Source: an uncultured Pseudomonadota bacterium
GTDB taxonomy: Bacteria; Pseudomonadota; Alphaproteobacteria; Rs-D84
DNA length: 64,000 bases
Assembly: GCA_902787305.1 (NCBI GenBank)
Contig: CADAFS010000002.1
Span: 31,449 to 95,448 of the forward strand
Reading direction: 5' to 3'
Part shown: piece after piece, positions 3,835-46,696 of the stretch
Numbering within the stretch: position 1 is the first letter of the stretch
Layout of the letters: each line of letters begins with the position of its first letter
Made by a program: the position numbers and the translations under genes
Notes under the pieces: model-generated
Told to the model about the DNA's origin: nothing
The model's database searches: none
The model's input: only the letters and a program-made list of their open reading frames with translations

Positions 3835-5088
3835 TTAACACCATCCGCGCAATTTCATCGCCGCGGCTATGCGTTTTATTGAATACATATACGCGGCTTC
3901 GCGCATGCTGACGCTGTATTCACATTTGATTTTATAAATTGCGTCAAATGCGGAAATCATGGCGGTGTGCTCTTTATCCGCAACTTCGCTTTCCGGCCAA
4001 TAATAACCGTATCGATTCTGTACCCATTCAAAATATGAAACCGTCACGCCGCCGGCGTTCGCCAAAATGTCCGGCACAATCATTACGCCACGTTTTAACA
4101 ACAATTCTTCGGCATCAAGTGTAGTTGGGCCGTTTGCGCCCTCTACTATCAAATTGGTTTTAATTAACGGTGCGGTATCGGTGTTTATTGTGTTTTCCAT
4201 TGCACAGGGGGACAAAACATCCACCGGCAATCCCCAAAAATCGTTGGTGGTTATTACGGTTGCACCCGGGGAATCGGCGATACTGCCTTTATTCATGTCC
4301 TTGTATTTCATAAGTGCATCAATATCGATACCGCTTTCATTATAAAGAATCGTATTCCATTCGGCGATTGCGACAATTTTTGCACCCATGTCAAATGCAC
4401 ATTTGGCGGTGAAACTGCCCACGTTGCCGAAACCTTGGACTGCAATTGTTGCGCCGTTTATATCCTTGGCCATGGTTTTTAGTGCCGACGCGATTGTTGT
4501 TGCAATTCCAAAACCGGTCGCACTGGTTCGCCCCAGTGAACCGTTCAATTCCACCGGTTTCCCGGTAAATGTGCCAAAAGAATTGTCGCCCGAAAGTTTG
4601 ATATATTCATCAATCATCCATGACATAATTTGCCCGTTTGTGTTGACGTCTGGTGCGGGAATGTCGGACTTTTCGCCAAGTATTGGATAAATTGCATCAA
4701 CATACCCGCGGCACAGACGTTCCAATTCGCCCGCCGATAATGTTTTTGGGTCAACGATAATTCCGCCCTTGCCGCCCCCATACGGCAAACCCGTCACCGC
4801 ACATTTGAATGTCATCCAAATTGAAAGCGCGGAAACTTCGTCACGTGACACGGCGGGATGAAAACGGATTCCACCCTTGGACGGTCCCAGTGCGGTATTA
4901 TGTTGTGCGCGGAAACCTGTAAAGGTTTTAATCGAACCATCATCCATTTTAACCGGAATTTGCACTTCGATAATGCGCGCCGGATTCTTTAAAATTTCGT
5001 ATACATTTTTATCAAGGCCCAATTTGTCACACGCAGATTTAACGCGGGCCTGGGCCCCCAATAACGGATTAAGATTTTCATTTGCCAT
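3835..5088 (-). CDS. gdhA: Glutamate dehydrogenase (Glu/Leu/Phe/Val dehydrogenase family)
   Basis: 417 aa. GGGKGG catalytic motif, GFGNVG Rossmann dinucleotide motif, typical bacterial GDH N-terminus. Confidence 0.85.
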   Translation of the reverse strand: MANENLNPLLGAQARVKSACDKLGLDKNVYEILKNPARIIEVQIPVKMDDGSIKTFTGFRAQHNTALGPSKGGIRFHPAVSRDEVSALSIWMTFKCAVTGLPYGGGKGGIIVDPKTLSAGELERLCRGYVDAIYPILGEKSDIPAPDVNTNGQIMSWMIDEYIKLSGDNSFGTFTGKPVELNGSLGRTSATGFGIATTIASALKTMAKDINGATIAVQGFGNVGSFTAKCAFDMGAKIVAIAEWNTILYNESGIDIDALMKYKDMNKGSIADSPGATVITTNDFWGLPVDVLSPCAMENTINTDTAPLIKTNLIVEGANGPTTLDAEELLLKRGVMIVPDILANAGGVTVSYFEWVQNRYGYYWPESEVADKEHTAMISAFDAIYKIKCEYSVSMREAAYMYSIKRIAAAMKLRGWC

Positions 5089-5138
5089 GATTTATCTCCT
5101 TTGTGTTTCTTGTGGTATACGCCAATATGCGGGAAAAA

Positions 5139-5699
5139 TCAATAATATTCGCCAAGTTCTATGATGCCACGGGCGCGCGCAGACATATTTTGTTGCATAA
5201 ATTTCAAATATTCGTTCGCCGTGCCTGATGCAACACGATGTGCGCGCGGGGTTGTAAAGAAATTCGGATGGTAGTCGCATTCCCAGGCCAATCGTGTTCG
5301 GTCGGCATCCCACAAGCACGCAGAAATATAGTCACGGGGCACAAGATTTTTCAATGAGTGATTTTTAACCGCATATATAATGGATTCGCATGTGCCGAAA
5401 TCCAGTGGAATAATTTCGTTCATAACCTGCTCTGCCAACGGGATTGCGTTGGGGCCATGTATGGTGTCGTCACCGTCATGGGTTCGTGCCATGTCGTGAA
5501 AGGCGCAGGCCAACACAACCCCAGTTGTGTCTTGCCCAAGGGCCAATGCGTAATCAATTCCACGAAAAACCACCGCCGCGGTATGTGTATAAAGCCCGTG
5601 ATAACCCTTCTTTTGTTGAATAGCATATTTTTCAACAACCGGCATTATTTCGGTTAAATACCAATCAAATGTTTTAGAAATAGAAATTCTGTTTGCCAT
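5139..5699 (-). CDS. HD-domain phosphohydrolase-like protein
   Basis: 186 aa. H...HD...D pattern (YHGLYTH ... AFHDMARTHDGDD). Confidence 0.4.
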   Translation of the reverse strand: MANRISISKTFDWYLTEIMPVVEKYAIQQKKGYHGLYTHTAAVVFRGIDYALALGQDTTGVVLACAFHDMARTHDGDDTIHGPNAIPLAEQVMNEIIPLDFGTCESIIYAVKNHSLKNLVPRDYISACLWDADRTRLAWECDYHPNFFTTPRAHRVASGTANEYLKFMQQNMSARARGIIELGEYY

Positions 5700-5927
5700 G
5701 ACTGTTCTTTTTTCTGCGTTCGCCTAATCTATCGTGTTTTTTATCAAATGTAAACAATTTTATTTAATTATTTTGCGTGCGGTCGCAACATGCAAAAATT
5801 AAACCGGCAGAAAGACCTGCCCGCCTACGCCGCTAATTACGAATAATTTTCTCATATTCCTGGTTGCGCTTCGGCGAGGCACTCAATTTTCTTAATCGTG
5901 CGCTTCGCGTGCGATAACGAAAATTGG

Positions 5928-5946
5928 TGGTGCGGGCGAAGGGAAT
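5928..5946. repeat. 19-bp direct repeat of tRNA-Gly(CCC) 3' end (tggtgcgggcgaagggaat), att-like site A
   Basis: Identical to 21197-21215 region of the tRNA-Gly gene at the far end of the island. Confidence 0.7.
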
Positions 5947-6088
5947 GTAATTCCCATTCACTTTGTTCATGGGCCCCTTTCACTGCGCTTCGCTTGTTCC
6001 GAACCCTCTCGTTGCCGTTGGCAACTCTTTCGGGTTCTCTTCCGTCGCCACATGCAAAAATTAAACCGGCAAAATGCCGGTTGAATTT

Positions 6089-6105
6089 TTGGTGCGGGCG
6101 AAGGG
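6089..6105. repeat. 17-bp direct repeat of tRNA-Gly(CCC) 3' end (ttggtgcgggcgaaggg), att-like site B
   Basis: Second copy 160 bp from copy A. Preceded by hairpin ccggcaaaatgccgg and 21-bp repeat catgcaaaaattaaaccggca, which also occurs at 5787-5808. Confidence 0.7.
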
Positions 6106-6300
6106 GACCATATTTTCGCTTTTTTAACCCTTTTTGGACCCTTTTTAGCCGCTTTTTACCTGTTTTTTATCATTTTGCCTGACACTTTGCTTGGCACTTT
6201 TATAAAATACTGTGTTTCCGGTAAAAAGTACACAAAAAAAAATGATATTTACAATTAGTTACAAATTGGTTATAGTTGCATTGAAAGTGAAGAGGAATAT

Positions 6301-7377
6301 ATGAAAAAAACATCCACGTATAATGCAGAAACTTTAAATGGTGTTTTAAGGTTGGCTGAATTGTTTTGTGGCCCTGGTGGTATTGGATTGGGGGCAAAAC
6401 TTGCTAACGTGGACGGTTTAAAGATTAAACATGTCTGGGCTACGGATTACGATAAAGATACATGTGAAACATATAAAAGGAATTTGAACCCAGAAGCAAT
6501 AATTTGTGAAGATATTCGCAAAATGGATTTTGCAAAAATTCATTCAAAATATGGCGAGATAGATTGTTTGACTTTTGGTTTCCCTTGCAATGATTTTAGC
6601 ACGGTTGGCGAACAGAAAGGATTGCACGGGGTTTTTGGTGCTTTGTATCAATATTGTGTAAAAGCATTGGAAGAATTTAAACCGAAATTTTTTATAGCAG
6701 AAAACGTGAGTGGTTTGCGTAATGCTAATGATGGAGAAGCTTTTAATAAGATTTTGGAAGCTTTTAAAAATTGTGGATACAACATATACCCCAATTTATA
6801 TCATTTTGAAGAATATGGTGTTCCACAAAAAAGACATAGAGTCATTATTGTTGGTATACGCAATGATATAAATTTAAAGTTTAAAATACCGTCTACGAAA
6901 CCATATAAAAAAGTGGATAATTCTGTAAGAACTGCTTTGAAAGACATTCCAGAAAAAGCACCAAACAATGAATTAACTGCTCAATCTGCAATGGTTGTAG
7001 AAAGATTGAAATATATAAAGGAAGGTGAAAATGCTTTCACCGCAAAGTTGCCACCACACCTTCAATTAAATGTAAAAGGTGCAAAAATAAGTCAAATTTA
7101 TAAACGGTTAAAAGCAGATGAACCTTCTTATACGATTACTGGTAGTGGTGGCGGTGGCACACATGTATATCATTATAAAGAAAATCGTGCTTTAACAAAC
7201 CGTGAACGTGCAAGGATTCAAACCTTTACGGATGATTTTGTGTTTATAGGGTCGAAAGAAAGTGTTCGTAAACAGATAGGTATGGCGGTTCCACCAAGGG
7301 GTATGAAAATAATATTTGAAGCACTGTTAAATACAATTCTTGGTAATGATTATGAAACAATGGAAGCAAAAGTGTAA
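6301..7377 (+). CDS. DNA (cytosine-5)-methyltransferase (Type II R-M methylase)
   Basis: Motif I FCGPGG, motif IV GFPCNDFS, motif VI ENV, motif VIII QKRHRVIIVG, motif IX RERARIQTFTDDF, motif X GMAVPP. Confidence 0.85.
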   Translation: MKKTSTYNAETLNGVLRLAELFCGPGGIGLGAKLANVDGLKIKHVWATDYDKDTCETYKRNLNPEAIICEDIRKMDFAKIHSKYGEIDCLTFGFPCNDFSTVGEQKGLHGVFGALYQYCVKALEEFKPKFFIAENVSGLRNANDGEAFNKILEAFKNCGYNIYPNLYHFEEYGVPQKRHRVIIVGIRNDINLKFKIPSTKPYKKVDNSVRTALKDIPEKAPNNELTAQSAMVVERLKYIKEGENAFTAKLPPHLQLNVKGAKISQIYKRLKADEPSYTITGSGGGGTHVYHYKENRALTNRERARIQTFTDDFVFIGSKESVRKQIGMAVPPRGMKIIFEALLNTILGNDYETMEAKV

Positions 7378-7380
7378 AAG

Positions 7381-8370
7381 ATGTCCGATATCATATTAAA
7401 AAACGATTTGTTTGAAAAAATATTGTTAGAACCAGCCAGGGAGTGTGATGAGTTGCGGATTGTGTCCGGTTTTTCAACACCTGCTATGGTAGTGCATAAT
7501 TTAACTGAAGTAGAAGAGCAATTTGCAAAACCAGATTTAAAAATACAGTTAATTATAGGTATGACCCCCACAATTTCCGGTATTTCTAAAACGCATCATA
7601 AAAACTTTACTAAACTTGTTGCCAATCGTCCAAACTTTGTGTGTTCGTATATAAAATCAGATGCCAGTCCGATACATACAAAGCTTTATACGTGGCTAAG
7701 AAATGGTGTTCCACAAAAAGCATTTCTTGCTTCTGCAAATTATACGATAAACGCATTTAAAAAAGAACAGGATGAAATAGCAACGGAGTGCGACCCTGTT
7801 CAAGCTTTGGAATATTTTAATTCCAAAGTTCCGCTGTCTTTATATTGCACTTGTGATGAAGCAGAGGAAATGGTTAGAGAAGATGTTTTACGGCAACGTG
7901 TTGCAAGAACGAGAGAAAATTCCGATGAAGAACAACAGGTGCTTGTTGAAAATTCAGGCGTGGAAGGGCAAGACACTGTGTCTTTACCATTATTTGTAGT
8001 TAGAGAAAATAGAATTCATACTCATTCTGGTTTGAATTGGGGGCAAAGAGACCGTAGAAATCCGAATCAGGCCTATATACCAATACCGGCAAAAATAGGT
8101 AGAAGTGGTTTTTTCCCGCCACGTGGACAGCCTTTTGCTGTATTGACTTCAGACGGATTCCCGTTTGTATGTGTTGTAGCACAGGGCGGGGATAAAGCGA
8201 TACATACAACAAATAACAATAGTGAATTTGGTGAATATTTTAGACGCCGGTTGGGTGTCCCATTAGGCGCTCCTATAACATTAGATGATTTGGACCGTTT
8301 TGGGAATAGATATGTTAAATTCACAAAAATAAATGAAGAAGAATATTATATGGAATTCAACCCAAGCTAG
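7381..8370 (+). CDS. Putative Type II restriction endonuclease, PLD-superfamily (BfiI/NgoAVII-like) with C-terminal DNA-binding domain
   Basis: Starts 3 nt after the MTase stop (translationally coupled). N-terminal IHTKLYTWL...(20 aa)...LASANYT resembles the metal-independent PLD nuclease active site (His/Lys ... Asn, spacing H+20 as in BfiI). Call is family-level from motifs only. Confidence 0.45.
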   Translation: MSDIILKNDLFEKILLEPARECDELRIVSGFSTPAMVVHNLTEVEEQFAKPDLKIQLIIGMTPTISGISKTHHKNFTKLVANRPNFVCSYIKSDASPIHTKLYTWLRNGVPQKAFLASANYTINAFKKEQDEIATECDPVQALEYFNSKVPLSLYCTCDEAEEMVREDVLRQRVARTRENSDEEQQVLVENSGVEGQDTVSLPLFVVRENRIHTHSGLNWGQRDRRNPNQAYIPIPAKIGRSGFFPPRGQPFAVLTSDGFPFVCVVAQGGDKAIHTTNNNSEFGEYFRRRLGVPLGAPITLDDLDRFGNRYVKFTKINEEEYYMEFNPS

Positions 8371-8792
8371 AAAAGATTGGTGCTGTGTTCGGCCTGCATG
8401 ACGAACTCAGATATAATAAATAAAATTACCATCCCATACGATTAATAAATCTTGATACGGTTGTTTGTTTGACGGACAGTATTTTTGCATTTCGGTATTA
8501 GATTAATGCATAATATGGTTAGAATTTTTTTCATAAATACTATTTACTTTTTTTTATAAATGTTTTATATTCGGATTGAATCCAAGAGATTGGGTTCGGG
8601 GTCTTTACAAACCCGCTTTATCCGATGCGAAAGCATCGTTATCTGATGGTTTCGGTGCTTTGCATCGTAATCATCCCTGGCTTGATGGTCGGGGTGCCGT
8701 AAGCTATACAACAGGGGTAACCTGAAGGCACGGGGTCAATGATAAAGCGACTGTAAACACTCCCGACCGCCTTTTGTCTGTATGGCGGCCAT

Positions 8793-11700
8793 TTGTTTTT
8801 AGGAAAGGAGATTTATATGCAAAACAAATTGGATTTATCTGTAAAGACAATAACCAAAAACAACATAAAATATAGTTGGGCATTTGTTTTGCTACTAATT
8901 CCTGTTACATCCTATGCTGATTTTAGTTTTAATAATTACCAATACACATTAAATTATTTACGGTCACAACATTTAACAAATGAATTCAGTCATTATACTA
9001 TCAATTTTTCCCCAACACAAAATGATGGGACAATAAATAGTTATGTATATCAAAATGGAACATTAACTCCAGTTAGTTATAATTATACCCTTACACCAAA
9101 TGCTGGGGACCATGGTGGTGGTGTCGTTCTTCATAATGGAGACGATTTAAACGTGTATTGGCACAATGAAACAAATTATAATCTTGTTGCTACTCCTGCA
9201 ACAATAAATACCATCGGAACAATATCTGGGGATTTTATAACTAATTCAGGGTCCGGACAAGCTGGGGGATTAACAAACAATGCTTTTACAATAAATAATT
9301 TATACGGTGATTTTATAGAAAACACTTCAACAACCAATGCTGGAGGCTTGCTTAATCTTGAGAACGGGCTTATTGGTAATATAGTGGGTAATTTTTTAAA
9401 CAATAATGGTATTGGATATGGGGGCGGTATCGACAATGAAGCCACTATTACAAATATAACATCAAATTTTGTTGGGAATATTGTCAATTATCCTGCTAGT
9501 GGTTCTGCCCTGGTTTTTGGGACAGCTATTGGCGGTGGAATTTATAATGCAGGGGCTATAACAGGTATATCGGGAGATTTTATTGATAATAGAGCGTATA
9601 ATTATTTTTCCGATTCCATAACCTCTTACTATTTTTACTCTTTTTCTGGTGGTGGAGCCTTATATAACGGAAAAAATTATTTACAGCCACAAAACAATGT
9701 TGAAACTAATATTATTGAGAACATACAGGGAAATTTTATCGGGAACTCTGCAGTTATTGAAAACATCTATAATCCTACAATAACCGATACTTTATTCTTC
9801 AGTGTTAATGGTGGTGCAATTTTCAATAACTATAATGGTCAAATACAAAACATAAATTCTGATTTTTATAACAATTTTGTGAATATAGATAATACAGGTT
9901 CTCTGTCTGGGATGGATACTATACAATTATGGTCAAGAGGCGGGGCTATTTATAATGAAGGTATAATCAACAATATTACTGGGAGTTTCATTAATAATAG
10001 CGCAACTATAAACAACAATAGTACTTTTAATACAGAAAACGTTCAATTATGGGCTTTTGGAGGCGCTATTTACAATGCTGGACAGCTTGGGTTGCAAGCC
10101 ACATCCAACGACATATTGTTTTCCGGCAACTCCGCAACTTTAGGCGGAGCTATTTATAACACATCCACTTTAACTATGAATATCGCAGAAAACCAACATA
10201 TAATTTTTGACACTGTCAGTGACGATATTTATAATAGCGGAACAATAACAGTATCAGGTGACGGAACTTTGTATTTACAATCTGTATCGGGCAATGGTGT
10301 TTTAAATCTTAATAATCATATTACTCATTTGGCAGACAATGCCGCATTTCAACAATATCTTCTTCAATTAGCGGAAGGGAGCATTTTATATGCTACCCCT
10401 AGTTCTCTTCTCTCTGACACAGGGGTATTAAATGATGGTACTTTATTTTTTTCAGACGGGGTATTATCCACGCACATAACCGGCTCTGGCAATATAATAA
10501 TAAACGGTGACGTGGTTAACGATTCCTACATAGGGAATCAAGTGATTATTAATTATGGTCACTCTTTAACAACTGCCGCTGGGTCGAATAGTTTGCATAA
10601 TGGCATTTTGAATAACGGGACATTATACTTAACAACTGGCTCATTAAGTACATGGACTGATATTACAGGCGATGGAACTATAATAACACTTGGTAATATT
10701 TCTGGTAACGCGGGTCAATTTGGGAACAATATTGTAAATGATTATACATTAACTTTAAACGGTGGAACATTAAATACAAGAATTAGCGGTGATGGAACGC
10801 TTGTTACCACAGGCAATGTAACAATTGATGTAACCGGTGCTTACTATGATACAGGGTATGTTAGTGTAGTAGAAAACAACATACAAAACAATGGGACATT
10901 AACACTTGTCGGTGGAGGTAGATTATGTACAAATATTTCCGGTGATGGTAATGTGGTGATTAATAATTCTTCGGGCTTTGTTGTTTCAGTAGCAGATGAC
11001 AATATTATAAGCGAATCCATAACAATTAATAATGAGGCAAATTTAAATGCATCCGCAAATAGTATTGGCGGAAATGTTATTAATAATGGTCAATTACATC
11101 TTTGGGGTGGGACTTTAACACATAATATTGCAGGAACAGGTTATACAGGCATACATGGTAACACCGAAACATCTGCAAATAATTTGTTAACAAACATTAG
11201 TTTAAGCGGTCTTACTGAATCCGAAGAAATATCACTAACTTTAACAGATGGCACATTACAACGAGTTATAAGCAATGGTAACAATGCAAATAATAATATC
11301 ATTATAGACGGTGATGTTTTATCATCTCCATCAAATCTATTAGTAAATGTTTCTGTAAATGATGGGGCTGTATTAACGTTAACCAATGGTACTTTATCTA
11401 AAAATATAACTGGTAATGGAACGTTATCGACAAGCGATTTAACAACAAGTGCGAATAATCTTGGAATTAACGTTAATAACATAGGCAATTTAACTCTTTC
11501 TGGTGGAACAATAACTCATAATATTACCGGTACAGGGCAAACCACAATCAATGGTGCTGTTACCAATAATGCGCTTATATCTCAAACAATGGTTGTTAAT
11601 TCTGGTAAATCTCTGACAACCGTCGCTGAGGGTATTGGCGGAAATATTTTAAATTCGGGGAATGTTACTTTAACTGGCGGGACCTTAAATAATAATATAT

Positions 11701-13598
11701 CTGGTGGCACAATAACAATAGATGGTAATGTTATTAACGATGGTAATTTGTACGGTTCTCTGGTTATAAATTCAAACAAAAGCCTAACAACTGATGCAGA
11801 TAATATATATTATTCCGGGTTACAAAATAACGGGGAATTGATTTTAACAGGTGGCACAATTTCCGGTGGTATAAATGGTTTATTCTACATATCGGGTAAT
11901 GTAACCAACAATGCTACACAAACTGGACAAATAAACATCTCTAACGGTGGTATGTTTACAACCGGTGGAAATTTATTATCAACAAATAATGCTATTATAA
12001 ATAATGGTACACTTAACATTACCAGTGGCAACCTGCAACAAAATGTTACTGGCGGAAACACCATAATTGCTCAAAACGCAACAACCAGCGCAACCAGTTT
12101 TGGCAATCTGGAATTAAACGGCATTATGAATGTCGGAACCAATACTGTTAATACGGCAAATGCAGATATTAATGGCACTATAAACCTTGGTATATCATCA
12201 TTAAACAAAAATTCCAGTACATATACCGGTGGGCACATTATAGCAGATGACATTGTGTTTGGCGATAATGCCATGCTTAATTTGACCATTACGGACACAA
12301 ACCTGCAAAAGGGTGGTTCCAGTGGTGATATAGAAATAATTACCGCAAATGGTGAATGGACGGGTGATATCGCTACATTTACCAGTAATAATTTGTATGA
12401 TATAGCATATAATACCGAAAATCACACATTTACGTTTACACGTAAAAAATTCGGTGCAGATTTAATAACAGAATTGAACGGGACTGAATTAGATATCAAT
12501 ATCGCCGGGGTTTGGGATGAACTGCAATCATCAGATAATCCAAATATACAAACCATAATAAATGCTATTGACTATAATTCCCAACATAACGCGACCAAAT
12601 ATGCTAAATTAATCCATAATTTGGCGCCACAAAACCATCAGGTTACGGTTGGGGCGGTACGTAACGCCAACACAGTTATAGATAATCATATATTCACTAG
12701 GTTGGCAACACTTAGACGCCCACAAATTAATAGAACCAACGCTAATCTAAGAAAAAGACGCGCAAATCCTTTCTATTATTATGGAAATTATCGTGGCAGA
12801 AACGGTGGTGATACAGAACCGACAACTAACAATGGTATGTGGATAGAAGGACTTTATAATTACGCACAACAAAAAGATGACACAAAGTTTTCTGGCAAAA
12901 CGTTTGGTGTTATGGGCGGTTTTGATTCTAAATTAACGGAACATTTGACCGCTGGTTTAGGGTATGCATTTAACAAAACAAACATTGACGCCGATAATCA
13001 CGATATTGACGCCATGGGGCATACGGGTTTTGTATATGCCGAATATAAACCAACACAATGGTATCTGGACGCTTTGTTGTCATATAACCTGACAAATTAT
13101 CAAAATTCAGCCGCACTTATCGACAATTTGACCGTAAAATCTGATTATAAAACCAACAGTTTGAGTGGCGCCTTGACGTCGGGTTACGATTTTCAAAAAG
13201 GTTTGGATTTATACGGTGGTCTGAATTATATCGGAATTAAACAGGACGCTTACACAGATACCGCCGGTCAATATATCAAAGCCGATGACACACAAATGTT
13301 GACCCTAAAAGCCGGTGGAAGATATAAATTAACAAGTCAAAAAATGAAAAGAGCTAGCACCGTTTTGAAAGCTGCGGTTTTGTACGATGTTATGTCTGAT
13401 GATGGGGTTGCAACGGTAACAGTAGGCAATAATAATTACATTGTTCATGGTAATGGTATTGACCCGTTCGGTGTTCAGGCAGGTATTATGTTTGATTCAT
13501 TTGGTGGCAATACTTATTTATCGCTAGGTTATGACCTTGAATGGCGTAATAATTTCATTAGTCATACAGGTTATATAAAATTGAAATACAATTTCTAA
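8793..13598 (+). CDS. Giant autotransporter / polymorphic-membrane-protein (Pmp)-like adhesin, 1601 aa
   Basis: N-terminal signal peptide (alternative start ATG 8817 MQNKLDL...). Passenger packed with GGA[I/L] tetrapeptides (GGAIYN x>=6) and FxxN repeats (GDFITN, GNFLNN, GDFIDN...), the Pmp hallmark. Many (N)ITG(G)/GTL beta-helix-like repeats. C-terminal ~300 aa beta-barrel translocator ending ...LKYNF (terminal Phe). Strongly AT-rich Asn/Thr/Gly codon usage. Confidence 0.75.
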   Translation: MFLGKEIYMQNKLDLSVKTITKNNIKYSWAFVLLLIPVTSYADFSFNNYQYTLNYLRSQHLTNEFSHYTINFSPTQNDGTINSYVYQNGTLTPVSYNYTLTPNAGDHGGGVVLHNGDDLNVYWHNETNYNLVATPATINTIGTISGDFITNSGSGQAGGLTNNAFTINNLYGDFIENTSTTNAGGLLNLENGLIGNIVGNFLNNNGIGYGGGIDNEATITNITSNFVGNIVNYPASGSALVFGTAIGGGIYNAGAITGISGDFIDNRAYNYFSDSITSYYFYSFSGGGALYNGKNYLQPQNNVETNIIENIQGNFIGNSAVIENIYNPTITDTLFFSVNGGAIFNNYNGQIQNINSDFYNNFVNIDNTGSLSGMDTIQLWSRGGAIYNEGIINNITGSFINNSATINNNSTFNTENVQLWAFGGAIYNAGQLGLQATSNDILFSGNSATLGGAIYNTSTLTMNIAENQHIIFDTVSDDIYNSGTITVSGDGTLYLQSVSGNGVLNLNNHITHLADNAAFQQYLLQLAEGSILYATPSSLLSDTGVLNDGTLFFSDGVLSTHITGSGNIIINGDVVNDSYIGNQVIINYGHSLTTAAGSNSLHNGILNNGTLYLTTGSLSTWTDITGDGTIITLGNISGNAGQFGNNIVNDYTLTLNGGTLNTRISGDGTLVTTGNVTIDVTGAYYDTGYVSVVENNIQNNGTLTLVGGGRLCTNISGDGNVVINNSSGFVVSVADDNIISESITINNEANLNASANSIGGNVINNGQLHLWGGTLTHNIAGTGYTGIHGNTETSANNLLTNISLSGLTESEEISLTLTDGTLQRVISNGNNANNNIIIDGDVLSSPSNLLVNVSVNDGAVLTLTNGTLSKNITGNGTLSTSDLTTSANNLGINVNNIGNLTLSGGTITHNITGTGQTTINGAVTNNALISQTMVVNSGKSLTTVAEGIGGNILNSGNVTLTGGTLNNNISGGTITIDGNVINDGNLYGSLVINSNKSLTTDADNIYYSGLQNNGELILTGGTISGGINGLFYISGNVTNNATQTGQINISNGGMFTTGGNLLSTNNAIINNGTLNITSGNLQQNVTGGNTIIAQNATTSATSFGNLELNGIMNVGTNTVNTANADINGTINLGISSLNKNSSTYTGGHIIADDIVFGDNAMLNLTITDTNLQKGGSSGDIEIITANGEWTGDIATFTSNNLYDIAYNTENHTFTFTRKKFGADLITELNGTELDINIAGVWDELQSSDNPNIQTIINAIDYNSQHNATKYAKLIHNLAPQNHQVTVGAVRNANTVIDNHIFTRLATLRRPQINRTNANLRKRRANPFYYYGNYRGRNGGDTEPTTNNGMWIEGLYNYAQQKDDTKFSGKTFGVMGGFDSKLTEHLTAGLGYAFNKTNIDADNHDIDAMGHTGFVYAEYKPTQWYLDALLSYNLTNYQNSAALIDNLTVKSDYKTNSLSGALTSGYDFQKGLDLYGGLNYIGIKQDAYTDTAGQYIKADDTQMLTLKAGGRYKLTSQKMKRASTVLKAAVLYDVMSDDGVATVTVGNNNYIVHGNGIDPFGVQAGIMFDSFGGNTYLSLGYDLEWRNNFISHTGYIKLKYNF

Positions 13599-14007
13599 AA
13601 TCGGAATTAATAGTAAACACGAGCTTTTTGAATGCCCTAAAACAACGCTTAGAAGGAAGATAATGGGTCGTTAATCGATTGTTCTTTCTTATGAGTATGG
13701 TGTGAATTTGGAGCGATATGGAATGTTTTATGGGACTTCCCAACATTGGTGCAGATAAGTATCATCATTTTTGCATAAAAAGCATAAACTATAAAATTTA
13801 TATAGTTTATTATTAACTATACCGATTAAACCGTAAATACGACCTTATTTTGCTCCGAAGGGTTAAAAATGCTCAAAAAAAGCCATTTTTTCAAGAAAAT
13901 CTGGCGTTTTTTGTAAAATTCTGGCGTACATTTAGTTTTCAACAGTTTATAATAATATCAGATTTAATAAAAGCGTTAAATCATAACTAAAAACAAAAGG
14001 ATATAAA

Positions 14008-14301
14008 ATGAAACAACAGTCTAATCTTTTGAAACAATTCCAGGTATGGATGGAACAAAAGGGTTATAAAAAAACAACACAATCGAATTTGCCAAGCACT
14101 ATTGCAACATATACGGCGTCTTTCCTTCAAATTTGCGAGTGGGAATCTAAAACACCGGAACAAGTTGCAGAATCTATTTCTGACATAGTGCTTGATTACA
14201 CGATAAAAACTCATTCTGCTAGAGGAAGAATGCGCAGTAGGTCCATCCGGGCAAGTGCGGTCGCCTTCAAAAACTTTTTAATCGAATCACAGGTTGCGTG
14301 A
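14008..14301 (+). CDS. Hypothetical small protein (weak resemblance to phage-integrase N-terminal SAM-like/core-binding domain)
   Basis: 97 aa. RBS aaggat 7 nt upstream. Overlaps next ORF by 4 nt (ATGA). Confidence 0.35.
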   Translation: MKQQSNLLKQFQVWMEQKGYKKTTQSNLPSTIATYTASFLQICEWESKTPEQVAESISDIVLDYTIKTHSARGRMRSRSIRASAVAFKNFLIESQVA

Positions 14302-14627
14302 TGAATAAGATTGCCGAATTAAATGATAACCTTAGAAAACATATGTGGTCCCCTGGTCGTAATAAAATCGTTTTGACCAGGGGTGTATGTTCTTTGCCGT
14401 TGATTGAACAAATGTTGTTATTGAAAAAGGTCAGAAATTTTAATGACTTTAATAAAGCAAACGATGTTTATAAACACCATGACTTTGGAAAAATTGAACA
14501 CAATGGGACAAACTATTTTTTCAAGATAGATTATTATGACCCATCGATGGAATATGGTTCAGAAAACCCAGCAAACGAAAATATAACAATCCGGGTTTTA
14601 ACGATAATGCGTGCAGACGAATATTAA
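14298..14627 (+). CDS. DUF3768-like protein (family typical of plasmids/ICEs)
   Basis: 109 aa. Motifs HHDFGKIEH, FFKIDYYD, TIRVLTIMRADEY recalled as the DUF3768 signature. Family call from memory, unverified. Confidence 0.4.
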   Translation: MMNKIAELNDNLRKHMWSPGRNKIVLTRGVCSLPLIEQMLLLKKVRNFNDFNKANDVYKHHDFGKIEHNGTNYFFKIDYYDPSMEYGSENPANENITIRVLTIMRADEY

Positions 14628-14640
14628 AAAAGGACTTGAT

Positions 14641-14784
14641 ATGGCGAATTGCACTTATTTTAAACTTGAAGTTAACGGTATGATATTGCCGGAAATATAT
14701 TTCAACTATGACCAAGCAAAAACCGCATTACAGAATATAGAAAAAACTAATGTTGCTGTAATCGGTAGAGTTATTATGTTTTAA
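14641..14784 (+). CDS. Small ORF (47 aa) MANCTYFKLEVNGMILPEIYF..., hypothetical
   Basis: Immediately downstream of the DUF3768-like ORF. Followed by a clear terminator hairpin. Confidence 0.25.
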   Translation: MANCTYFKLEVNGMILPEIYFNYDQAKTALQNIEKTNVAVIGRVIMF

Positions 14785-14805
14785 CCGTTGATATCAAAAC
14801 AATAA

Positions 14806-14842
14806 AACCTGTATACGCTGGAAAGTATACAGGTTGTTTTTT
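14806..14842 (+). terminator. Rho-independent terminator (aacctgtatac-gctggaaa-gtatacaggtt + T6)
   Basis: 11-bp perfect stem, T-run. Ends the 14008-14784 small-gene operon. Confidence 0.7.
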
Positions 14843-14878
14843 ACATTTGTTCCATATTTGAGTCGTGGCTGCCCCAAT

Positions 14879-15517
14879 CTAGAAATGCTTAATACTTAGT
14901 ATCCGATGACTCAAAGGAGCAACCACAAAGGGTTTGTGTGATGATTTGGAATGTTTTGTATCGTCTGGAAACATCTCGGTTGATAAAAATACTCGATTAT
15001 CGTCAAAATAGGCGTCTTTATTGGCTTTGATTTCCTTTGTTGCATAAAAATACGCTTTGCATTCGGTTCTGTTCATTGTTTGAATATCAACCACATCCGG
15101 AGAATAACAAAAATGTTTTATAGTTTTATCTATCGCCGCGGTTATTTTATAATTGTGGTATCGGTTATTCTGTAAAAACATATGAAAATGCCACTTGTTG
15201 GATGAATTCTGTTCACCGAAACCGATAAATAATAACTGTTTACGAAACCAGTGTCTTGGACTTAATTGCTTTTGAAAATACTTCATAACCCGTCGTAAAT
15301 AACTTCGGGATATTTCCATACTTTTACTACGCTGATTTGTTGGAAATTGGATTGAAATAAAGTGCGTCGGAGCAAATTCACACAACCATTTGCAAATTTC
15401 CCGTCTTAAAATCAATGTTTGTTTTGCATTTTTACGAATTATACAATCAATTCTGTATACATCCACCATATCATTATTTGTAGTTAACATTTTTACCACC
15501 ATTGTTGTTGCAACCAC
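14879..15517 (-). CDS. Hypothetical protein with HUH-endonuclease-like motifs (possible rolling-circle Rep/relaxase-like initiator)
   Basis: Contains HFISIQF (motif-1-like), WHFHMFL (HUH-like H-F-H), and AYFYATKEIK (YxxK motif-3-like) in the canonical order. Start uncertain (several in-frame Met). Not verifiable without search. Confidence 0.3.
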   Translation of the reverse strand: MVATTMVVKMLTTNNDMVDVYRIDCIIRKNAKQTLILRREICKWLCEFAPTHFISIQFPTNQRSKSMEISRSYLRRVMKYFQKQLSPRHWFRKQLLFIGFGEQNSSNKWHFHMFLQNNRYHNYKITAAIDKTIKHFCYSPDVVDIQTMNRTECKAYFYATKEIKANKDAYFDDNRVFLSTEMFPDDTKHSKSSHKPFVVAPLSHRILSIKHF

Positions 15518-15889
15518 AGATGCAAATCAAATCACGATAGGTTGTGGTGGTGTGGTGGTAATGATTCTTTCTGCATCTATGGTTATTAACATAAATTAGA
15601 ACATCTGTTTTATTGTTTTTGCGTTGTGGTTGTATTTTCTTGAAAAAGAGTAAAAAAATTAAACAACACGATTGTTTTTTCGGCTGTTAATTTTTTTAAC
15701 CAACATATATCAACCGCATTGCGTCTATGTTTATCGTCGAATACCACATCGAAAGTCCACAAGCGATACAATATACACATTTTTATAGAACAGTTTTTTG
15801 TGGTGGTTGCATGGACGGAATTATTTTTTTGATAAAAATCCCGGTGTTTTAAACCGGGATTGATGGTTGCACCATATGGCGCTTTATTA

Positions 15890-16078
15890 TTATTTTGGTT
15901 TAGCGATACGCATAAAATCGCAAGTTGATATCAACATACACCTGTTTAATCGTGCAAAATCCGGACCTTCCGTTTTCAAATTTTTATAAATTTGTTTAAC
16001 GGAAAATCTTTTGTCTGGGAATAATTCTTGTAATCTTTCCTTGGCAAATTTTGCTTCAATTTTTAACCTGTTATTCAT
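15890..16078 (-). CDS. Small protein (62 aa), last gene of 3-gene MTase operon; possible DNA-binding/regulatory protein
   Basis: Start overlaps stop of upstream MTase by 8 nt. Basic, helix-rich sequence. Confidence 0.3.
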   Translation of the reverse strand: MNNRLKIEAKFAKERLQELFPDKRFSVKQIYKNLKTEGPDFARLNRCMLISTCDFMRIAKPK

Positions 16079-17294
16079 GATTTTCTCCTTCGGTTTTTGT
16101 ATTAGGGTTAAATTCTGCTTTTACAAATTCGGCAACAACGGCACAGCAGTGTGCACTAACCCAGCATTCCCCCAAAACAGTGCGGAGCAACTTGGTTTTC
16201 TGTCGTGCCCAATATGGAATTTCGATATCATCGGGTAATCCGATTGCACGAAAAATTTCATGTATTGTGAATGTACGGCAATCTGTAAATTGTTCGTTTC
16301 CGTCCTTATCCAAAATTGGTTTACCGTTATCATCAACAATTAATCGACCTGGATGAATCATATGATATGCGGATAGTTCACCACTATTCGTCAAAATCGA
16401 ATGCATTGGTTCATTCCACCTCGCGCGGCTGAAAGCACCAGCGTGTTTAGCACCACTTACTTTTTTAGATAATGTTAGTGGGGAAACAACCCGTTCACCA
16501 GTTGGTGTTATTCGTATTTGGTCTGCTTGCCAAGGTGCGACATACCCAGGTTCATCGTACCAATCTGGTCCACGTTGCCCGAATTCCAGTGTTGGTAAAT
16601 CGTCAATTGCATCTTCCAATGTTAATGGGATTTCTGTGATTGGTTCTGGTAATTTTATTGGTTTAACCTTTGACGCCATAATAATTGTTCGTGGCCGATT
16701 AATTGCTACCCCGAAATGTTTTGCATTTTGAACGGCTTTACAAACATATTGAAAACCAAGATTTCTTAATTCTTTTTCTATTTGGTCGCCAAGCAGAAGT
16801 TCATATTTCTTCGTTTTAAAAGTTAACATATCTTCCGCATTTTCTATGGCGCAGAATTCATATGATGGACAGCGTTTTAAATGTTCCATAACCGCTTCGA
16901 ATAGATATTGTTCATCACTATCTTCATCCTTCCTTGTGTTTGCCCGAGTTATTTGCTGACAGCATGGACTTGCCAGAAGTATTTGCGGTTGTTCTTTATT
17001 TGCAATTTCAGCCAATTTATCTTGCACTTTCGGGTTGGTTATATCACCAATTACCATCGTTGAATTTTTAAAAAGTGCATGATTTAGTTTAGCGCGGTCT
17101 GGTACCAACTCGTTCGTCAAAACAACATCTACCCCTATGTTTTGAAGGTAATACTGGTTTATTCCAGCACACGCAAATAGATTGGTCGCCTTCAAACGAT
17201 GGGGCGTGTCTATTTTGATTTGTTGGGGTTGAACGTGCGACTTGATTTTGTCGCATGTTGTTTTTATTAATAAATCACTGTTATTTCGTGCCAT
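16071..17294 (-). CDS. Second DNA (cytosine-5)-methyltransferase
   Basis: Motif I LFACAGI, motif IV ASPCCQQ (PC), motif VIII QNAKHFGVAINRPRTIIMA, motif IX RTFTIHEIFRAIGLPDD, C-terminal GECWV. Variable TRD between VIII and IX. 14-nt overlap with upstream ORF. Confidence 0.75.
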   Translation of the reverse strand: MARNNSDLLIKTTCDKIKSHVQPQQIKIDTPHRLKATNLFACAGINQYYLQNIGVDVVLTNELVPDRAKLNHALFKNSTMVIGDITNPKVQDKLAEIANKEQPQILLASPCCQQITRANTRKDEDSDEQYLFEAVMEHLKRCPSYEFCAIENAEDMLTFKTKKYELLLGDQIEKELRNLGFQYVCKAVQNAKHFGVAINRPRTIIMASKVKPIKLPEPITEIPLTLEDAIDDLPTLEFGQRGPDWYDEPGYVAPWQADQIRITPTGERVVSPLTLSKKVSGAKHAGAFSRARWNEPMHSILTNSGELSAYHMIHPGRLIVDDNGKPILDKDGNEQFTDCRTFTIHEIFRAIGLPDDIEIPYWARQKTKLLRTVLGECWVSAHCCAVVAEFVKAEFNPNTKTEGENHE

Positions 17295-18414
17295 TGTAAT
17301 CTCCTTTGGCTTCGCTGATTAAATAATTTTGTTTTAGGTATTTGAAACTTTCGTCGTGAATTTCCAAGACCGGAAAAGTCGGATACATTTGTTGGATGAT
17401 TTCCGCATAATATAATGGGTGTTTATCCGTTTTTGTGATTTCTCGGTCAAATACAACGGAATCCATTTTTAGGTTCTGCGGCTTCGGGGCGTCTCCCTTA
17501 CACACTATCACCATTGTTCGATGTTGACGGGTTGTAAAAGCCCCGTTGTGTGATTTACCGGTATCCACAACCGCAAATTCTTTTACCGTAAATCGTAAAT
17601 TTTTCAGAATATCCAATGATTTTTGAATTTGTGATTCATCCAGCCAGAAAAATCCAACGGCATCTTCCGCAATATGATTTCGCATAATTTCAACATTGAT
17701 TTTATACACCAAATCACCATAAATTACCGGAAATTTTGCATTTTCTGGTAAATCAAACATAGGGGCATCACCGGCTTCAAGAACCGTGAATGTTTTGTTT
17801 TCCGATTTTTCATCCGTATGAATTTTTTGATTAAGTTGGTACAAAGTCGGCAAATCTTCAACATCCCAATCGCCACTTTTTAACTTTTTTAACGACTCTT
17901 GGGTGGCGCGTTCGACCATGTCAAAGGTTATATCTTTTCTTATTGTCCATTTTTTTCGCGACAATTTATATTCGTCCCATGCCATTTTATAACTTGGAAA
18001 TCGCCCAGATTTGATATCCCGTTTAATATGCTCTACCTTTTGGACTTCTCGATAAAGCAACCACGAATTCAAATAAATCGCTGTTTCGCATACACCAGTA
18101 TGATTTTCTAATTCATCCGGCGAATTTGCATGTTTGAGTGCACCCTTGGCATCGGATAATAACTTTTCGGCATCTTTTTCATATTCCGCCAATTCTGCTT
18201 CCGTTAAAACTCGAACATCTGGTAATAATGTACAACCAGACACCATTACCGCCGTATTAATCGGATTTGATTCGGTCGTTTCAACGGGTTGAGTTAATTC
18301 TTGCTGTTCTGTTTGTTCGGATAAATCTGCCACCATATCGATTTCTAGACCAATCCTAGACGCATTTAATTCGGCCGCGTTTAAACCATTATTTAAAGAA
18401 TTCATAACTAGCAT
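17281..18414 (-). CDS. Hypothetical 377-aa protein, first gene of MTase operon (candidate cognate restriction endonuclease or other defence partner)
   Basis: No recognisable motifs by eye. Translationally coupled to the C5-MTase. Acidic N-terminus. Probable true start at second ATG (18405) with AAGGA RBS. Confidence 0.4.
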   Translation of the reverse strand: MLVMNSLNNGLNAAELNASRIGLEIDMVADLSEQTEQQELTQPVETTESNPINTAVMVSGCTLLPDVRVLTEAELAEYEKDAEKLLSDAKGALKHANSPDELENHTGVCETAIYLNSWLLYREVQKVEHIKRDIKSGRFPSYKMAWDEYKLSRKKWTIRKDITFDMVERATQESLKKLKSGDWDVEDLPTLYQLNQKIHTDEKSENKTFTVLEAGDAPMFDLPENAKFPVIYGDLVYKINVEIMRNHIAEDAVGFFWLDESQIQKSLDILKNLRFTVKEFAVVDTGKSHNGAFTTRQHRTMVIVCKGDAPKPQNLKMDSVVFDREITKTDKHPLYYAEIIQQMYPTFPVLEIHDESFKYLKQNYLISEAKGDYNGTK

Positions 18415-18799
18415 TCCTTAATTTTTGACAATAAAAGCACCCTTTGCGAAATCGCATTATCGGTTCTGCTCCGGGAAACTTTAGGTTAAAATTTGGATGA
18501 AAAACTTTTCGGTTTACATCCGCTTAAACTTGGTCTAGAATGTTCATTGCATATGAGTCGTTCTAGACCATTAGTTCGATTCTTTAATTTGGGGTTAACG
18601 GTTTCATATCGTTGCTCCATTTTTTTATTTGTTAATTTTTTTTACACAACAATGATTAAATAAACCGCAGAAATTCGCCAGAAATTTATTTTCATTTTTT
18701 GCAAATAAATTTTGGAAAAAATTTTGAAAAAAACAGTTTGTATCAAATTAAAAATTAAAATCCTTGATTTTGGGGCTTTTTTAATTACGATATGTAGCA

Positions 18800-19303: not shown

Positions 19304-19379
19304 AATACACTATATGGCGTTTAACCACTGAATAAGCCATCAAACAAATTTCAAGCACACGCGTAAAAAGGCCTTCGTG

Positions 19380-19500
19380 TATTTTTGATTATTTCAATGT
19401 TGGTTTTGGTGTGGGTGGTGGCTAGTCGGGGCTGGCGGCTGGCAGGTGGGTATCCTGGGATGCCGGGTGGGATATGGTAGCCCCCGGGTAGGTGGGTATA
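19380..19500. repeat. G-rich tract with GGTGGG/GGTGGGTAT iterations immediately 3' of integrase stop
   Basis: tggttttggtgtgggtggtggctagtcggggctggcggctggcaggtgggtatcctgggatgccgggtgggatatggtag...ggtaggtgggtataacc. Confidence 0.5.
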
Positions 19501-19514
19501 ACCAGCGCAATCAA

Positions 19515-21095
19515 CTATTTTTTTGACATAACTTTTTTCCAGTAATCAAATTCCGGTTGCAGAAAATCGTATCGCAGTTTATCCGCTTGTTCTTTGATTT
19601 TTGCCAGCGTATGCTTGGAATAGTGTTGTTCCATAATTGTTTGGCCTTTCCAGCCCATAATATTGTTGATATATGATTGTGGAACTAAAAAATCCTGCAA
19701 TTGTAAACTTGCATTATTGCGGAAAGAATGGAAATCCAATTTACCCTTGTATGGTTTAGATAAATTCAAACTACGAATAAACGGTAAAATGCCTTCGGAT
19801 ACATATTTATTATTATAATTACCTTTGCTGTTAACCGCTTGGGTAAATACAGGGTCACTATCTTCGGCTTTTAATCTGCTTTTTTTCCTTTGAGCCCAAT
19901 CAATAAATCCCAAATCCAATAATTGTGTTGGAAGTGGCAACACTCGTATTGTTGCACCAGTTTTTAATTGTTTGGTTTTATTGTCCTTATCTTTATGGAA
20001 ATAGATACAATAACAACCATCTACATCAATAATATCTTTATATTGAATTGTTACTGCTGCATTTGTTCTGGCACCAGCAAACATTCCCATCAAAATAGCC
20101 CAAAAATCGTCAGGGTTATCTTTGAAATGTTTGTGTTTTGGGTTGAATATTTCTTTCAAATCTTTTTCTGTGTATGGCATATGCGGATTTTGGGATTCGC
20201 CTTTTTTATAAACAGGATAGCGGTTGTTAAAATTTTTGTACAATCCGGGATATTCTCTGTCTGCATAATTGTATAATGCCTTTAAATAACCGACTTTCTT
20301 GCCTTTTGTTGCATCTGTCGCCCACTTAGGGTTTGTTTTTATTTCGTTTATTATCGCATCAATTTTTGCTTCATTATTAAATTCAGCGTAATCGGAATCA
20401 ATGGTCAATCCAATTTTTTTGGCCATATGTTTAAAAAACGATTCTTTCTTGCGTTTTTCTGCATCCCCATTATTTTCATGCTGAATCCAAGCGTCTCTCA
20501 ATTCCCTTATCGTGTGTTTTTCCGGTGGTGTTCCAGAACCGGAACCTGAATTTATGTAATCCATTTGTAATATTTTTTGTTGATTTTGCATGATTACTTC
20601 TTGATTGGTTAAAATTTGCCCCATCATTTCTTCTAAGTGTTGTATTTGGTCAATCGTATCTGGGTCAGTAATGCTCAATTTTAATTTTTGTAATCTTGAA
20701 TATATTCCAAGTAAAGCCTTTATTTTTATAGGGTCGTTTTGAATCGATATGCGTTTAACTTTGCACATCATCATTTGACCGCCGCAATCAATTTCCTTAT
20801 CGTATTCATCAAAAACCATATTTTTTGATATCGATTCAGCGGCAAGAATTAATGTTTTTGCTTCAAAGTTTTTTGAATATGAATTGTCTTTCATTTGTTT
20901 CGCCTTTTCCAACGCCTCATAATAATTTTTCGTATGTAATGATTTTATAAAATATCGGCGTTTACCATTTTGACGCGGTAATTCAACCATATAATAAAAC
21001 ACATCACCCCTAAGATAAAGATTGTCATTTGCTTGACAGTTTGCTTTACACTTCTTGAACATAGTTATTTTCTCCTTGTTTTTCAAGTGCGCCAA
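19515..21095 (-). CDS. int: Tyrosine-type site-specific integrase (phage integrase family), tRNA-adjacent
   Basis: 526 aa. C-terminal catalytic region with ARTNAAV (Arg), KTGATIRVLPL, HSFRNNASLQL (H-x-x-R), MGWKGQTIMEQHYSKHT (catalytic Tyr). Lies 100 bp from the tRNA-Gly 3' end, co-oriented. Confidence 0.8.
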   Translation of the reverse strand: MAHLKNKEKITMFKKCKANCQANDNLYLRGDVFYYMVELPRQNGKRRYFIKSLHTKNYYEALEKAKQMKDNSYSKNFEAKTLILAAESISKNMVFDEYDKEIDCGGQMMMCKVKRISIQNDPIKIKALLGIYSRLQKLKLSITDPDTIDQIQHLEEMMGQILTNQEVIMQNQQKILQMDYINSGSGSGTPPEKHTIRELRDAWIQHENNGDAEKRKKESFFKHMAKKIGLTIDSDYAEFNNEAKIDAIINEIKTNPKWATDATKGKKVGYLKALYNYADREYPGLYKNFNNRYPVYKKGESQNPHMPYTEKDLKEIFNPKHKHFKDNPDDFWAILMGMFAGARTNAAVTIQYKDIIDVDGCYCIYFHKDKDNKTKQLKTGATIRVLPLPTQLLDLGFIDWAQRKKSRLKAEDSDPVFTQAVNSKGNYNNKYVSEGILPFIRSLNLSKPYKGKLDFHSFRNNASLQLQDFLVPQSYINNIMGWKGQTIMEQHYSKHTLAKIKEQADKLRYDFLQPEFDYWKKVMSKK

Positions 21096-21196
21096 AGCAA
21101 AAAATGTTGGGAATCCAAAGATTTATTTGCATTGATATGTTTTTTATATCAAACAAAAAATCCGGTCAAAGTGCCGGATTTGTGATAAAACTATCT

Positions 21197-21270
21197 TGGT
21201 GCGGGCGAAGGGAATCGAACCCTCGTCTAAAGCTTGGGAAGCTTTCGTGCTGCCATTATACCACGCCCGC
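21197..21270 (-). tRNA. tRNA-Gly (anticodon CCC)
   Basis: Reverse complement GCGGGCGTGGTATAATGGCAGCACGAAAGCTTCCCAAGCTTTAGACGAGGGTTCGATTCCCTTCGCCCGCACCA. 7-bp acceptor, anticodon loop TTCCCAA, T-arm GGGTTCGATTCCC, encoded CCA. Near-identical in architecture to enterobacterial glyU. Confidence 0.85.
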
Positions 21271-46676: not shown

Positions 46677-46696
46677 ACGTTGATTTTCCTAATCTC

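Follow-up and report, generated by a model that had tools for sequence, protein, structure and literature searches.

Can the restriction endonuclease of a two-gene cassette cut DNA on its own when its closest characterised homologues cannot? This question is raised by a stretch of 64,000 nucleotides from an uncultured alphaproteobacterium (contig CADAFS010000002.1, positions 31,449 to 95,448; below called the window), in which the gene for a C5-cytosine DNA methyltransferase (MTase), M, is directly followed by the gene for a restriction endonuclease (REase) of the NgoFVII family, R. The known systems CglI, NgoAVII, and BceSIV consist of three genes, and their R proteins bind GCCGC (PMC4267653, PMC4267654, PMC5861437). 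For DNA cleavage R.NgoAVII and R.CglI require that a DEAD-Z1 ATPase (N/H) be present and that nucleoside triphosphates be hydrolysed (PMC4267653), whereas the structurally related BfiI is autonomous (PMC4267653, PMC4267654, PMC5861437). Judged by gene content, the clade to which the R protein of the window belongs is probably autonomous as well, that is, functionally BfiI-like though phylogenetically on the NgoFVII side.

Identity of the nuclease and the methyltransferase

The initial annotation of this locus, made from the DNA letters alone, had described R as a nuclease of the phospholipase D (PLD) family with an HxK...N catalytic arrangement and a B3-like domain at the C-terminus for binding DNA. 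The two peptides on which it relied are present in R: IHTKLYTWL holds H99 and K101, LASANYT holds N120, and the distance from H to N is 21 residues. The complete catalytic set is near-invariant in an alignment of 102 relatives (alignment A2; H in 101, K in 102, N in 101, and E in 102 sequences), and H99/K101/N120/E132 of R are equivalent to H105/K107/N125/E136 of BfiI (PMC4267654). With the proposed Pfam check RE_NgoFVII (PF09565) was found at residues 12-160 (99.2 bits against a gathering cutoff of 23.8, E 2e-28) and RE_NgoFVII_C (PF20731) at residues 208-317 (105.1 bits against 23.8, E 3.7e-30).

Both domains were also recovered at the level of structure. A phmmer search of the Protein Data Bank (PDB) with R alone barely detected R.NgoAVII (4rct, E 0.13), but a profile of 20 clade sequences found it at E 5e-19 with both domains covered. 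The AlphaFold2 (AF2) model of R, built on the 102 relatives, has a pLDDT of 91 and a pTM of 0.87. With this model Foldseek listed R.NgoAVII (4rct) first at 2.9e-18 and BfiI (2c1l) second at 8.7e-10, and the complexes between DNA and the B3 domain of R.NgoAVII, 4rd5 and 4rdm, matched at 3e-9 (TMt 0.66-0.68). Further matches were SauUSI, NucT, Nuc, Zucchini, and PLD3, so that R has the PLD fold. The PLD nuclease and the B3-like domain are thus confirmed by profile and structure alike, and the outcome that would have spoken against them, a protein without PLD-fold match or of a non-nuclease family, did not occur.

The two domains of R are connected by an acidic linker, in which residues 161-205 comprise 11 acidic (D/E) and 5 basic (K/R) residues. 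Residues 175-195 have pLDDT values below 50 in the model and are predicted to be disordered, the sole part of R for which this is the case. A comparable acidic linker is present in BfiI and R.NgoAVII and was proposed to occlude the active site (PMC4267654); by analogy, the linker of R may have an autoinhibitory role. In the B3-like domain the N-arm, SGLNWGQR..R.PNQAYI, is near-invariant across the clade.

N120 was considered as a BfiI-like Asn in place of an Asp in NgoAVII, and this candidate was dropped, as sequences of the NgoAVII clade also have Asn at position 124. In this context we noted that the text of PMC4267654 gives D124, D241, and D243 for R.NgoAVII, whereas N124, E241, and E243 stand in the sequence taken from the PDB and in 36 clade members. 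Given this mismatch, the residue identities in that text were not relied on.

M is a member of the C5-MTases (Dcm/PF00145) with a complete catalytic domain including the catalytic Cys of the PC motif and the ENV motif. The Pfam profile DNA_methylase is covered from position 2 to 322 of 324 (E 3.3e-77), and TIGR00675 matches at E 1.6e-58. The nearest solved structures in the PDB are M.HaeIII (4e-29) and M.HhaI (8e-22), and PADLOC identified M as MTase_II (7e-118) and filed the pair as generic MTase_II + REase_II. Considering the sequence, the family-level matches of M are far beyond chance, and its motifs are not chance occurrences. The initial annotation had counted all ten motifs of the 5-methylcytosine (m5C) MTases. 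Six of them (I, IV, VI, VIII, IX, and X) could be pinpointed; the other four are only implied by the near-full-length Pfam and TIGR00675 matches.

Close copies of the two genes are found in metagenome-assembled genomes (MAGs) from goat omasum (L003) and roe deer (L004). For M the ratio of non-synonymous to synonymous substitution rates (dN/dS) is 0.024 against the roe-deer copy. For R it is 0.011 against the goat-omasum copy (24 synonymous differences and 1 non-synonymous difference) and 0.068 against the roe-deer copy. These dN/dS values of 0.01-0.07 indicate strong purifying selection and show that both genes are in use. M and R are almost certainly an R-M (restriction-modification) pair of an m5C MTase and a PLD/B3 REase.

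The DEAD-Z1 ATPase gene and the gene order of the clade

The NgoAVII-type members from Neisseria, Pedobacter, and a metagenome lineage all have a tight M-R-Z1 operon with a Z1 protein of 627-631 amino acids (aa). A hidden Markov model (HMM) of Z1/H was built from these three proteins and run on 80 genomic loci of the clade with 8-kb flanks and on the whole window, all translated in six frames. The HMM did not match anywhere in the 64 kb of the window, and 79 of the 80 clade loci were likewise without a match within the 8-kb flanks; the single positive locus was L031. As a control, the same HMM was applied to metagenome loci of the NgoAVII clade with at least 600 bp downstream of R. The ATPase gene was found in 75 of 75 of these loci, in 72 of them directly adjacent. 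R of the window therefore does not have the adjacent DEAD-Z1 (H/N) ATPase gene of the CglI/NgoAVII type (R2H2).

The gene order M-R is present in about 70 of 78 clade loci. A gene for a Vsr mismatch endonuclease lies directly 3' of R in 33 of the 52 clade loci having a downstream open reading frame (ORF) on the same strand (Pfam 5e-19); no vsr was found in the window. The complete 14-kb plasmid pCh1_14 of Bacillus cytotoxicus carries M and R only. As the ATPase gene occurs in 75 of 75 control loci, in one of 80 clade loci, and not in the window, we conclude that the clade represents a two-gene system, often extended to M-R-Vsr.

Three loci show other arrangements. In the Peptococcaceae MAG locus L031 (4970-10889) an NgoAVII-type R (384 aa) and a Z1 ATPase (614 aa) are followed by a clade R (323 aa) and Vsr, and a single C5-MTase and a helix-turn-helix (HTH) regulator are encoded on the opposite strand; apparently, two PLD nucleases of different clades share one methylase. 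In a Clostridia MAG (L053, 6915-8963) a single ORF of 682 aa matches both M (2.6e-136) and R (2.5e-70), and is either a natural M-R fusion or an artefact of assembly or frameshift. The conjugative plasmid p275D of Lactococcus lactis (L170, record 44661-48499) encodes a PLD REase that is distantly related (23% identity) and whose flanks hold an HTH regulator and a pair of adjacent C5-MTases; this is a different architecture without ATPase.

Target sequence

Full-length comparison of M with the MTases from three operons of the NgoAVII type gave 41-44% identity (E ~1e-80), and many positions across the target recognition domain (TRD) are conserved between them. The comparison was made with the MTases of these operons rather than with named REBASE entries, and at 41-44% identity the central base of the target is not predictable. 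Within this group of MTases M.CglI and M.NgoFVII are specific for GCSGC and M.NgoAVII for GCCGC, and relatives for GCWGC, GCAGC, and GCNGC (PMC10734518). The C-terminal domain of the NgoAVII type is shared with R.Fsp4HI, which cuts GC/NGC (PMC2441816). Since M, TRD included, is this similar to the MTases of the NgoAVII operons, the target is probably GCNGC-like rather than wholly new. The suggestion of the initial annotation that the cassette could have a new specificity is thus uncertain; a wholly new site is possible, but not the default assumption.

In R.NgoAVII the residues that read GCCGC have been assigned (PMC4267654). The tip of the N-arm with E241 and E243 is deleted in the R proteins of the clade, and the reader of the central G in the C-arm, R285, aligns with a variable column (H275 in the window). 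R consequently does not recognise GCCGC by means of these residues. The predicted site is a GCNGC-type pentanucleotide of which the central base would be read differently from NgoAVII; we give a GCNGC-type site about an even chance. There is probably one specificity across the clade. The single MTase that the two nucleases of L031 apparently share is of the same type as M of the window, which hints that NgoAVII-type and clade nucleases read sites under one methylation pattern.

Depletion of k-mers was evaluated in the host DNA that surrounds clade members (about 0.93 Mb). GCWGC had an observed/expected ratio of 0.83 (rank 4 of 512) compared with 0.93 in control hosts, but the known target GCCGC was not depleted in NgoAVII-type hosts (0.96). 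With this failed control the test lacks power, and it was not used.

Proposed mechanism and alternative explanations

We regard it as likely that the locus is a functional two-gene R-M cassette with an autonomous BfiI-like R and a GCNGC-type site, carried as cargo of an island. According to this model M and R would be transcribed from one promoter, and R would be translated by reinitiation after the stop codon of M, so that the methylase would be made first or in excess. M would act on C5 of a cytosine, within a short recognition site that is most likely GCNGC-type. R would dimerise via its PLD domains, with H99/K101/N120/E132 of each subunit contributing to a single composite active site, and its B3-like domains would bind unmethylated sites. 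R would then cleave metal-independently, with phospho-histidine as the covalent intermediate and with the cut probably at a constant short distance from the site, and would do so without the DEAD-Z1 translocase that NgoAVII and CglI use. The cassette would move between rumen Alphaproteobacteria as cargo at the distal end of a tRNA-Gly island of about 15 kb. An ATPase-independent action of R we consider rather more probable than the opposite, and we incline slightly to the wider statement that the ATPase-less clade comprises autonomous, ATP- and metal-independent PLD REases that share a full-length ancestor with the motor-dependent R-subunits of NgoAVII and CglI.

Several points weigh against this model. 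Autonomy does not follow from homology, because R.NgoAVII and R.CglI, which are the closest among the characterised homologues, are unable to cut alone (PMC4267653), and no biochemistry for any member of the clade was found in the literature. BfiI, the paradigm of autonomy, is detectable from R by structure only and not by sequence. The orientation of the two domains in the R model fits neither crystal structure (full-length TM about 0.4 to both 4rct and 2c1l), for which reason a choice between a BfiI-like and an NgoAVII-like orientation from the AF2 monomer was dropped. Furthermore, the target sequence is unproven, k-mer depletion having given no decision, and the 64-kb window may leave room for an ATPase gene elsewhere in the genome.

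This last point leads to the alternative that R depends, in the manner of CglI and NgoAVII, on an unlinked helicase-like ATPase of the H/N type or another type. It would agree with the homology of R over its full length to R.NgoAVII (hhalign probability 99.4%), which is inactive on DNA without its ATPase, and with the position of the clade R directly downstream of an R+Z1 pair in L031. On the other hand, the ATPase gene is linked in all 75 control loci and absent from 79 of 80 clade loci and the window, and a complete plasmid, pCh1_14, has M and R without it. Moreover, the cassette moves as M and R alone, and a nuclease in need of an unlinked partner would fail after transfer. We consider this alternative improbable. 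Still less probable is that R binds its site without making double-strand breaks, be it as a nickase or as a site-specific binder that blocks phage development. Orlowski and Bujnicki raised this idea when R.NgoAVIIP showed no detectable nuclease activity (PMC2441816), and a single active site per dimer would be compatible with it; but the inactivity of NgoAVII was later explained by the missing ATPase (PMC4267653), for BfiI a single site is enough to make double-strand breaks (PMC4081073), and a near-invariant tetrad in 102 sequences is what an active nuclease predicts.

A decaying module, effectively an orphan MTase with a non-functional remnant of R, is very unlikely: although the Vsr partner of many clade loci is missing and the module lies in a mosaic island among remnants, the R ORF is intact and of full length with all catalytic residues, its dN/dS is low, and the identical protein is encoded on several independent contigs. 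Hardly credible is a modification-dependent (Type IV-like) PLD nuclease in the manner of SauUSI or the END nucleases, of which M would not be the cognate partner. PLD nuclease domains do occur in modification-dependent enzymes, but a nuclease directed against m5C would be suicidal next to the C5-MTase to which R is coupled in about 70 of 78 loci, and the C-terminal domain of R is of the sequence-reading B3 type of R.NgoAVII and no modification sensor. Because the linkage with the MTase is conserved, we rejected the methyl-directed reading. We therefore retain the autonomous two-gene cassette as the preferred explanation.

Operon layout and expression signals

Both ORFs and the gap of 3 nt between them were found as initially annotated (Table 1). 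M is preceded by a good Shine-Dalgarno (SD) sequence, GAGGAA, whereas none was detected at the usual spacing ahead of the R start codon. The junction between M and R is tight or overlapping in 71 related loci, where the most frequent spacings are -4, +2, and -1 nt. Coupling of R to M by termination and reinitiation is therefore plausible; of the translational coupling claimed initially, the layout that favours it stands, and the coupling itself is only inferred.

The promoter-like sequence upstream of M was found in a consensus scan in which the number of sites was not above shuffle expectation, so that this site is weak evidence when taken alone. The promoter region is conserved in L003 and L004.

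Table 1. Positions of the M-R cassette, its parts, and neighbouring features in the window
Feature	Position	Strand	Method or match
Outer att-like (attachment site-like) copy of the tRNA-Gly 3' end	5929..5943		
Terminator-like hairpin (6064-6082) and att-like copy of the tRNA-Gly 3' end (6089-6105); probable distal island boundary	6064..6105		
Conserved cassette: promoter region, M, R, and ~135 nt	6175..8506	+	blastn, boundary alignments
Promoter-like TTTACA-17-TATAGT of the M-R operon	6248-6276	+	consensus scan
SD GAGGAA of M, 4 nt before the M ATG	6292-6297	+	
M, C5-cytosine DNA methyltransferase, 358 aa, stop TAA	6301..7377	+	
M motif I, FCGPGG	6364-6381	+	
M motif IV, GFPCNDFS (catalytic Cys)	6577-6600	+	
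M motif VI, ENV	6700-6708	+	
M motif VIII, QKRHR	6826-6840	+	
M TRD	between motifs VIII and IX	+	
M motif IX, RERARIQ	7201-7221	+	
M motif X, GMAVPP (GNAVP variant)	7279-7296	+	
M-R junction TAA-AAG-ATG, 3 nt (AAG) between M stop and R ATG	7375..7383	+	
R, NgoFVII-family restriction endonuclease of the ATPase-less clade, 329 aa, stop TAG	7381..8370	+	
R N-terminal PLD nuclease domain, aa 12-160	7414..7860	+	PF09565
R catalytic codon H99	7675-7677	+	
R catalytic codon K101	7681-7683	+	
R catalytic codon N120	7738-7740	+	
R catalytic codon E132	7774-7776	+	
R acidic interdomain linker, aa 161-207	7861..8001	+	
R C-terminal B3-like (pseudobarrel) DNA-binding domain, aa 208-317	8002..8331	+	PF20731
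Repeat-rich protein, 1601 aa, directly downstream of the cassette	8793-13598	+	weak Chlam_PMP repeat, E 0.008
Rep-like ORF	14879-15517	-	REP_ORF2-G2P, E 9e-5
Second C5-MTase, 407 aa	within 16071-18414	-	Pfam 1.2e-20; 21% identical to M
Tyrosine integrase	19515..21095	-	Pfam Phage_integrase, 3.7e-6
tRNA-Gly(ccc), abutting the integrase; proximal island end	21197..21270	-	ARAGORN

The integrative island

A search for repeats identified a 15-mer, GGTGCGGGCGAAGGG, that occurs exactly three times in the window (5929, 6091, and 21198; 0.09 expected) and whose reverse complement is found at the 3' end of tRNA-Gly(ccc). Because the tyrosine integrase abuts this tRNA gene and repeats of the tRNA 3' end are situated at the far side, the region from about 6089 to 21215 constitutes an integrative island of about 15 kb of the kind that integrates at tRNA genes. 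On the inner side of its distal boundary the M-R cassette follows immediately. The repeats D1 (5782/6044) and D4 (5922/6084) duplicate the arrangement of hairpin and att copy, and the outer att copy is probably the remnant of an earlier, decayed integration. A tRNA gene directly upstream of M, suspected from a tRNA-like translation, was also considered and rejected, since ARAGORN found none and the tRNA-like stretches are att-like copies of the tRNA-Gly 3' end.

The boundaries of the cassette were narrowed down by comparison with L003 and L004. By blastn, L003 is 95-97% identical over 6175/6246 to 8498/8506, and L004 is 87% identical over 6083 to 8498. The two loci share the cassette in partly different surroundings, and the window parts from both about 135 bp past the R stop codon. 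All three keep the hairpin and a remnant resembling the tRNA 3' end upstream of the conserved promoter region. In L004 the cassette is located about 0.8 kb from a tRNA-Gly(gcc), and between them there is only a remnant matching the 5' end of the window integrase gene. The R copy of L003 is 96.7% identical. When window 6301-8370 was aligned with L003 6921-8990, M differed by 5 nt (dS 0.014) and R by 25 nt (dS 0.122); this uneven divergence points to recombination with a breakpoint close to where M and R meet.

The repeats of the island bound two MTase-containing modules. The gene of the second C5-MTase overlaps by 14 nt with an ORF of 377 aa that has no Pfam match and a PADLOC match of only E 2e-4; the two may together be another R-M system, whose endonuclease would be unclassified. 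The 1601-aa protein encoded downstream of the cassette looks like an autotransporter or adhesin. Window sequence from about 8505 on, including its gene, is unmatched at the DNA level at the corresponding position of both L003 and L004, and no ORF of similar size directly follows R in either locus. The Rep-like ORF (Table 1) and a DUF3768 gene, annotated on the identical contig, are also cargo of the island. Window 13989-14180 matches L003 at 78%, and L003 therefore shares more of the island cargo than the R-M cassette alone. An Rfam search of 5000-9500 gave only a sub-threshold match to sRNA-Xcc1 at 8687-8776 on the plus strand (27.2 bits against a gathering cutoff of 53, E 0.12), where the sequence is richer in GC, a short way upstream of the 1601-aa ORF.

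Distribution and significance

The window is 99.995% identical to a metagenome contig in ENA. NCBI has a record of the identical R protein (P0001), encoded by an Alphaproteobacteria MAG, under the name "NgoFVII family restriction endonuclease". The homologue search with R yielded 427 clusters, and relatives of the clade occur in 326 species-representative genomes from many bacterial phyla and archaea; the search for the NgoAVII-type sister group yielded 1037 clusters. The statement of the initial annotation that PLD-family REases are rare was thus too strong, and such enzymes have been called "far from rare" (PMC4081073). As the identical protein already has a name and relatives are this widespread, the system represents no new kind; what the mobile island carries here is an ordinary R-M cassette.

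The individual locus matters little, as its REase is annotated already, belongs to a named family, and comes from a rumen MAG. It is of modest interest at the level of the clade, a widespread sister group without ATPase of the motor-dependent R-subunits of NgoAVII and CglI, which amounts to a natural experiment on why these need a DEAD-Z1 motor while their homologues apparently do not. If the proposed model is correct, the comparison of the clades (a shorter N-arm, the loss of the central-base readers, and a different linker) would show what makes an R-subunit self-sufficient or dependent on a translocase, and a single GCNGC-type specificity of wide distribution would be implied by the near-invariant arm that reads the DNA. 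R is furthermore a candidate for a metal-independent nuclease module with a compact B3 reader, and the island context illustrates the spread of a 2.3-kb M-R cassette among rumen Alphaproteobacteria.

Comparison with known systems

Like the known islands that target tRNA genes and carry defence cargo, the island of the window has a tyrosine integrase at tRNA-Gly and direct repeats; the extra outer att copy is a difference. Among the C5-MTases of the GCSGC, GCWGC, and GCNGC type, M finds its counterparts in the three NgoAVII-type MTases compared above.

The initial annotation had called the nuclease BfiI/NgoAVII-like. R is indeed structural kin to both, but the term merges the autonomous mechanism of BfiI with the DEAD-Z1-dependent one of NgoAVII. 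BfiI and BmrI (PDB 2C1L), which are autonomous metal-independent Type IIS enzymes, combine a PLD and a B3-like domain with an acidic linker and have no ATPase partner, as is the case for R. A relation to BfiI at the level of sequence was not found: the clade profile had no match to 2c1l at E values up to 10, the structural alignment gave 12% identity, and the full-length superposition was poor (TM 0.40). Nor does anything at the cassette point to ACTGGG, the site of BfiI.

By its sequence R lies on the NgoFVII side, yet it comes without an ATPase gene. NgoAVII, NgoFVII, CglI, and BceSIV have the same PLD and B3-like architecture of R (PF09565 + PF20731; PDB 4RCT, 4RD5), and the NgoAVII type shares with the window the catalytic H/K/N/E set, the upstream C5-MTase, and the order M-then-R. 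The two clades are homologous over the whole length and deeply split (hhalign probability 99.4%, E 1e-21, 20% identity). In contrast to the NgoAVII type, the R proteins of the window clade are about 20 aa shorter and have a different linker, and their genes are often followed by Vsr where the NgoAVII type has H.

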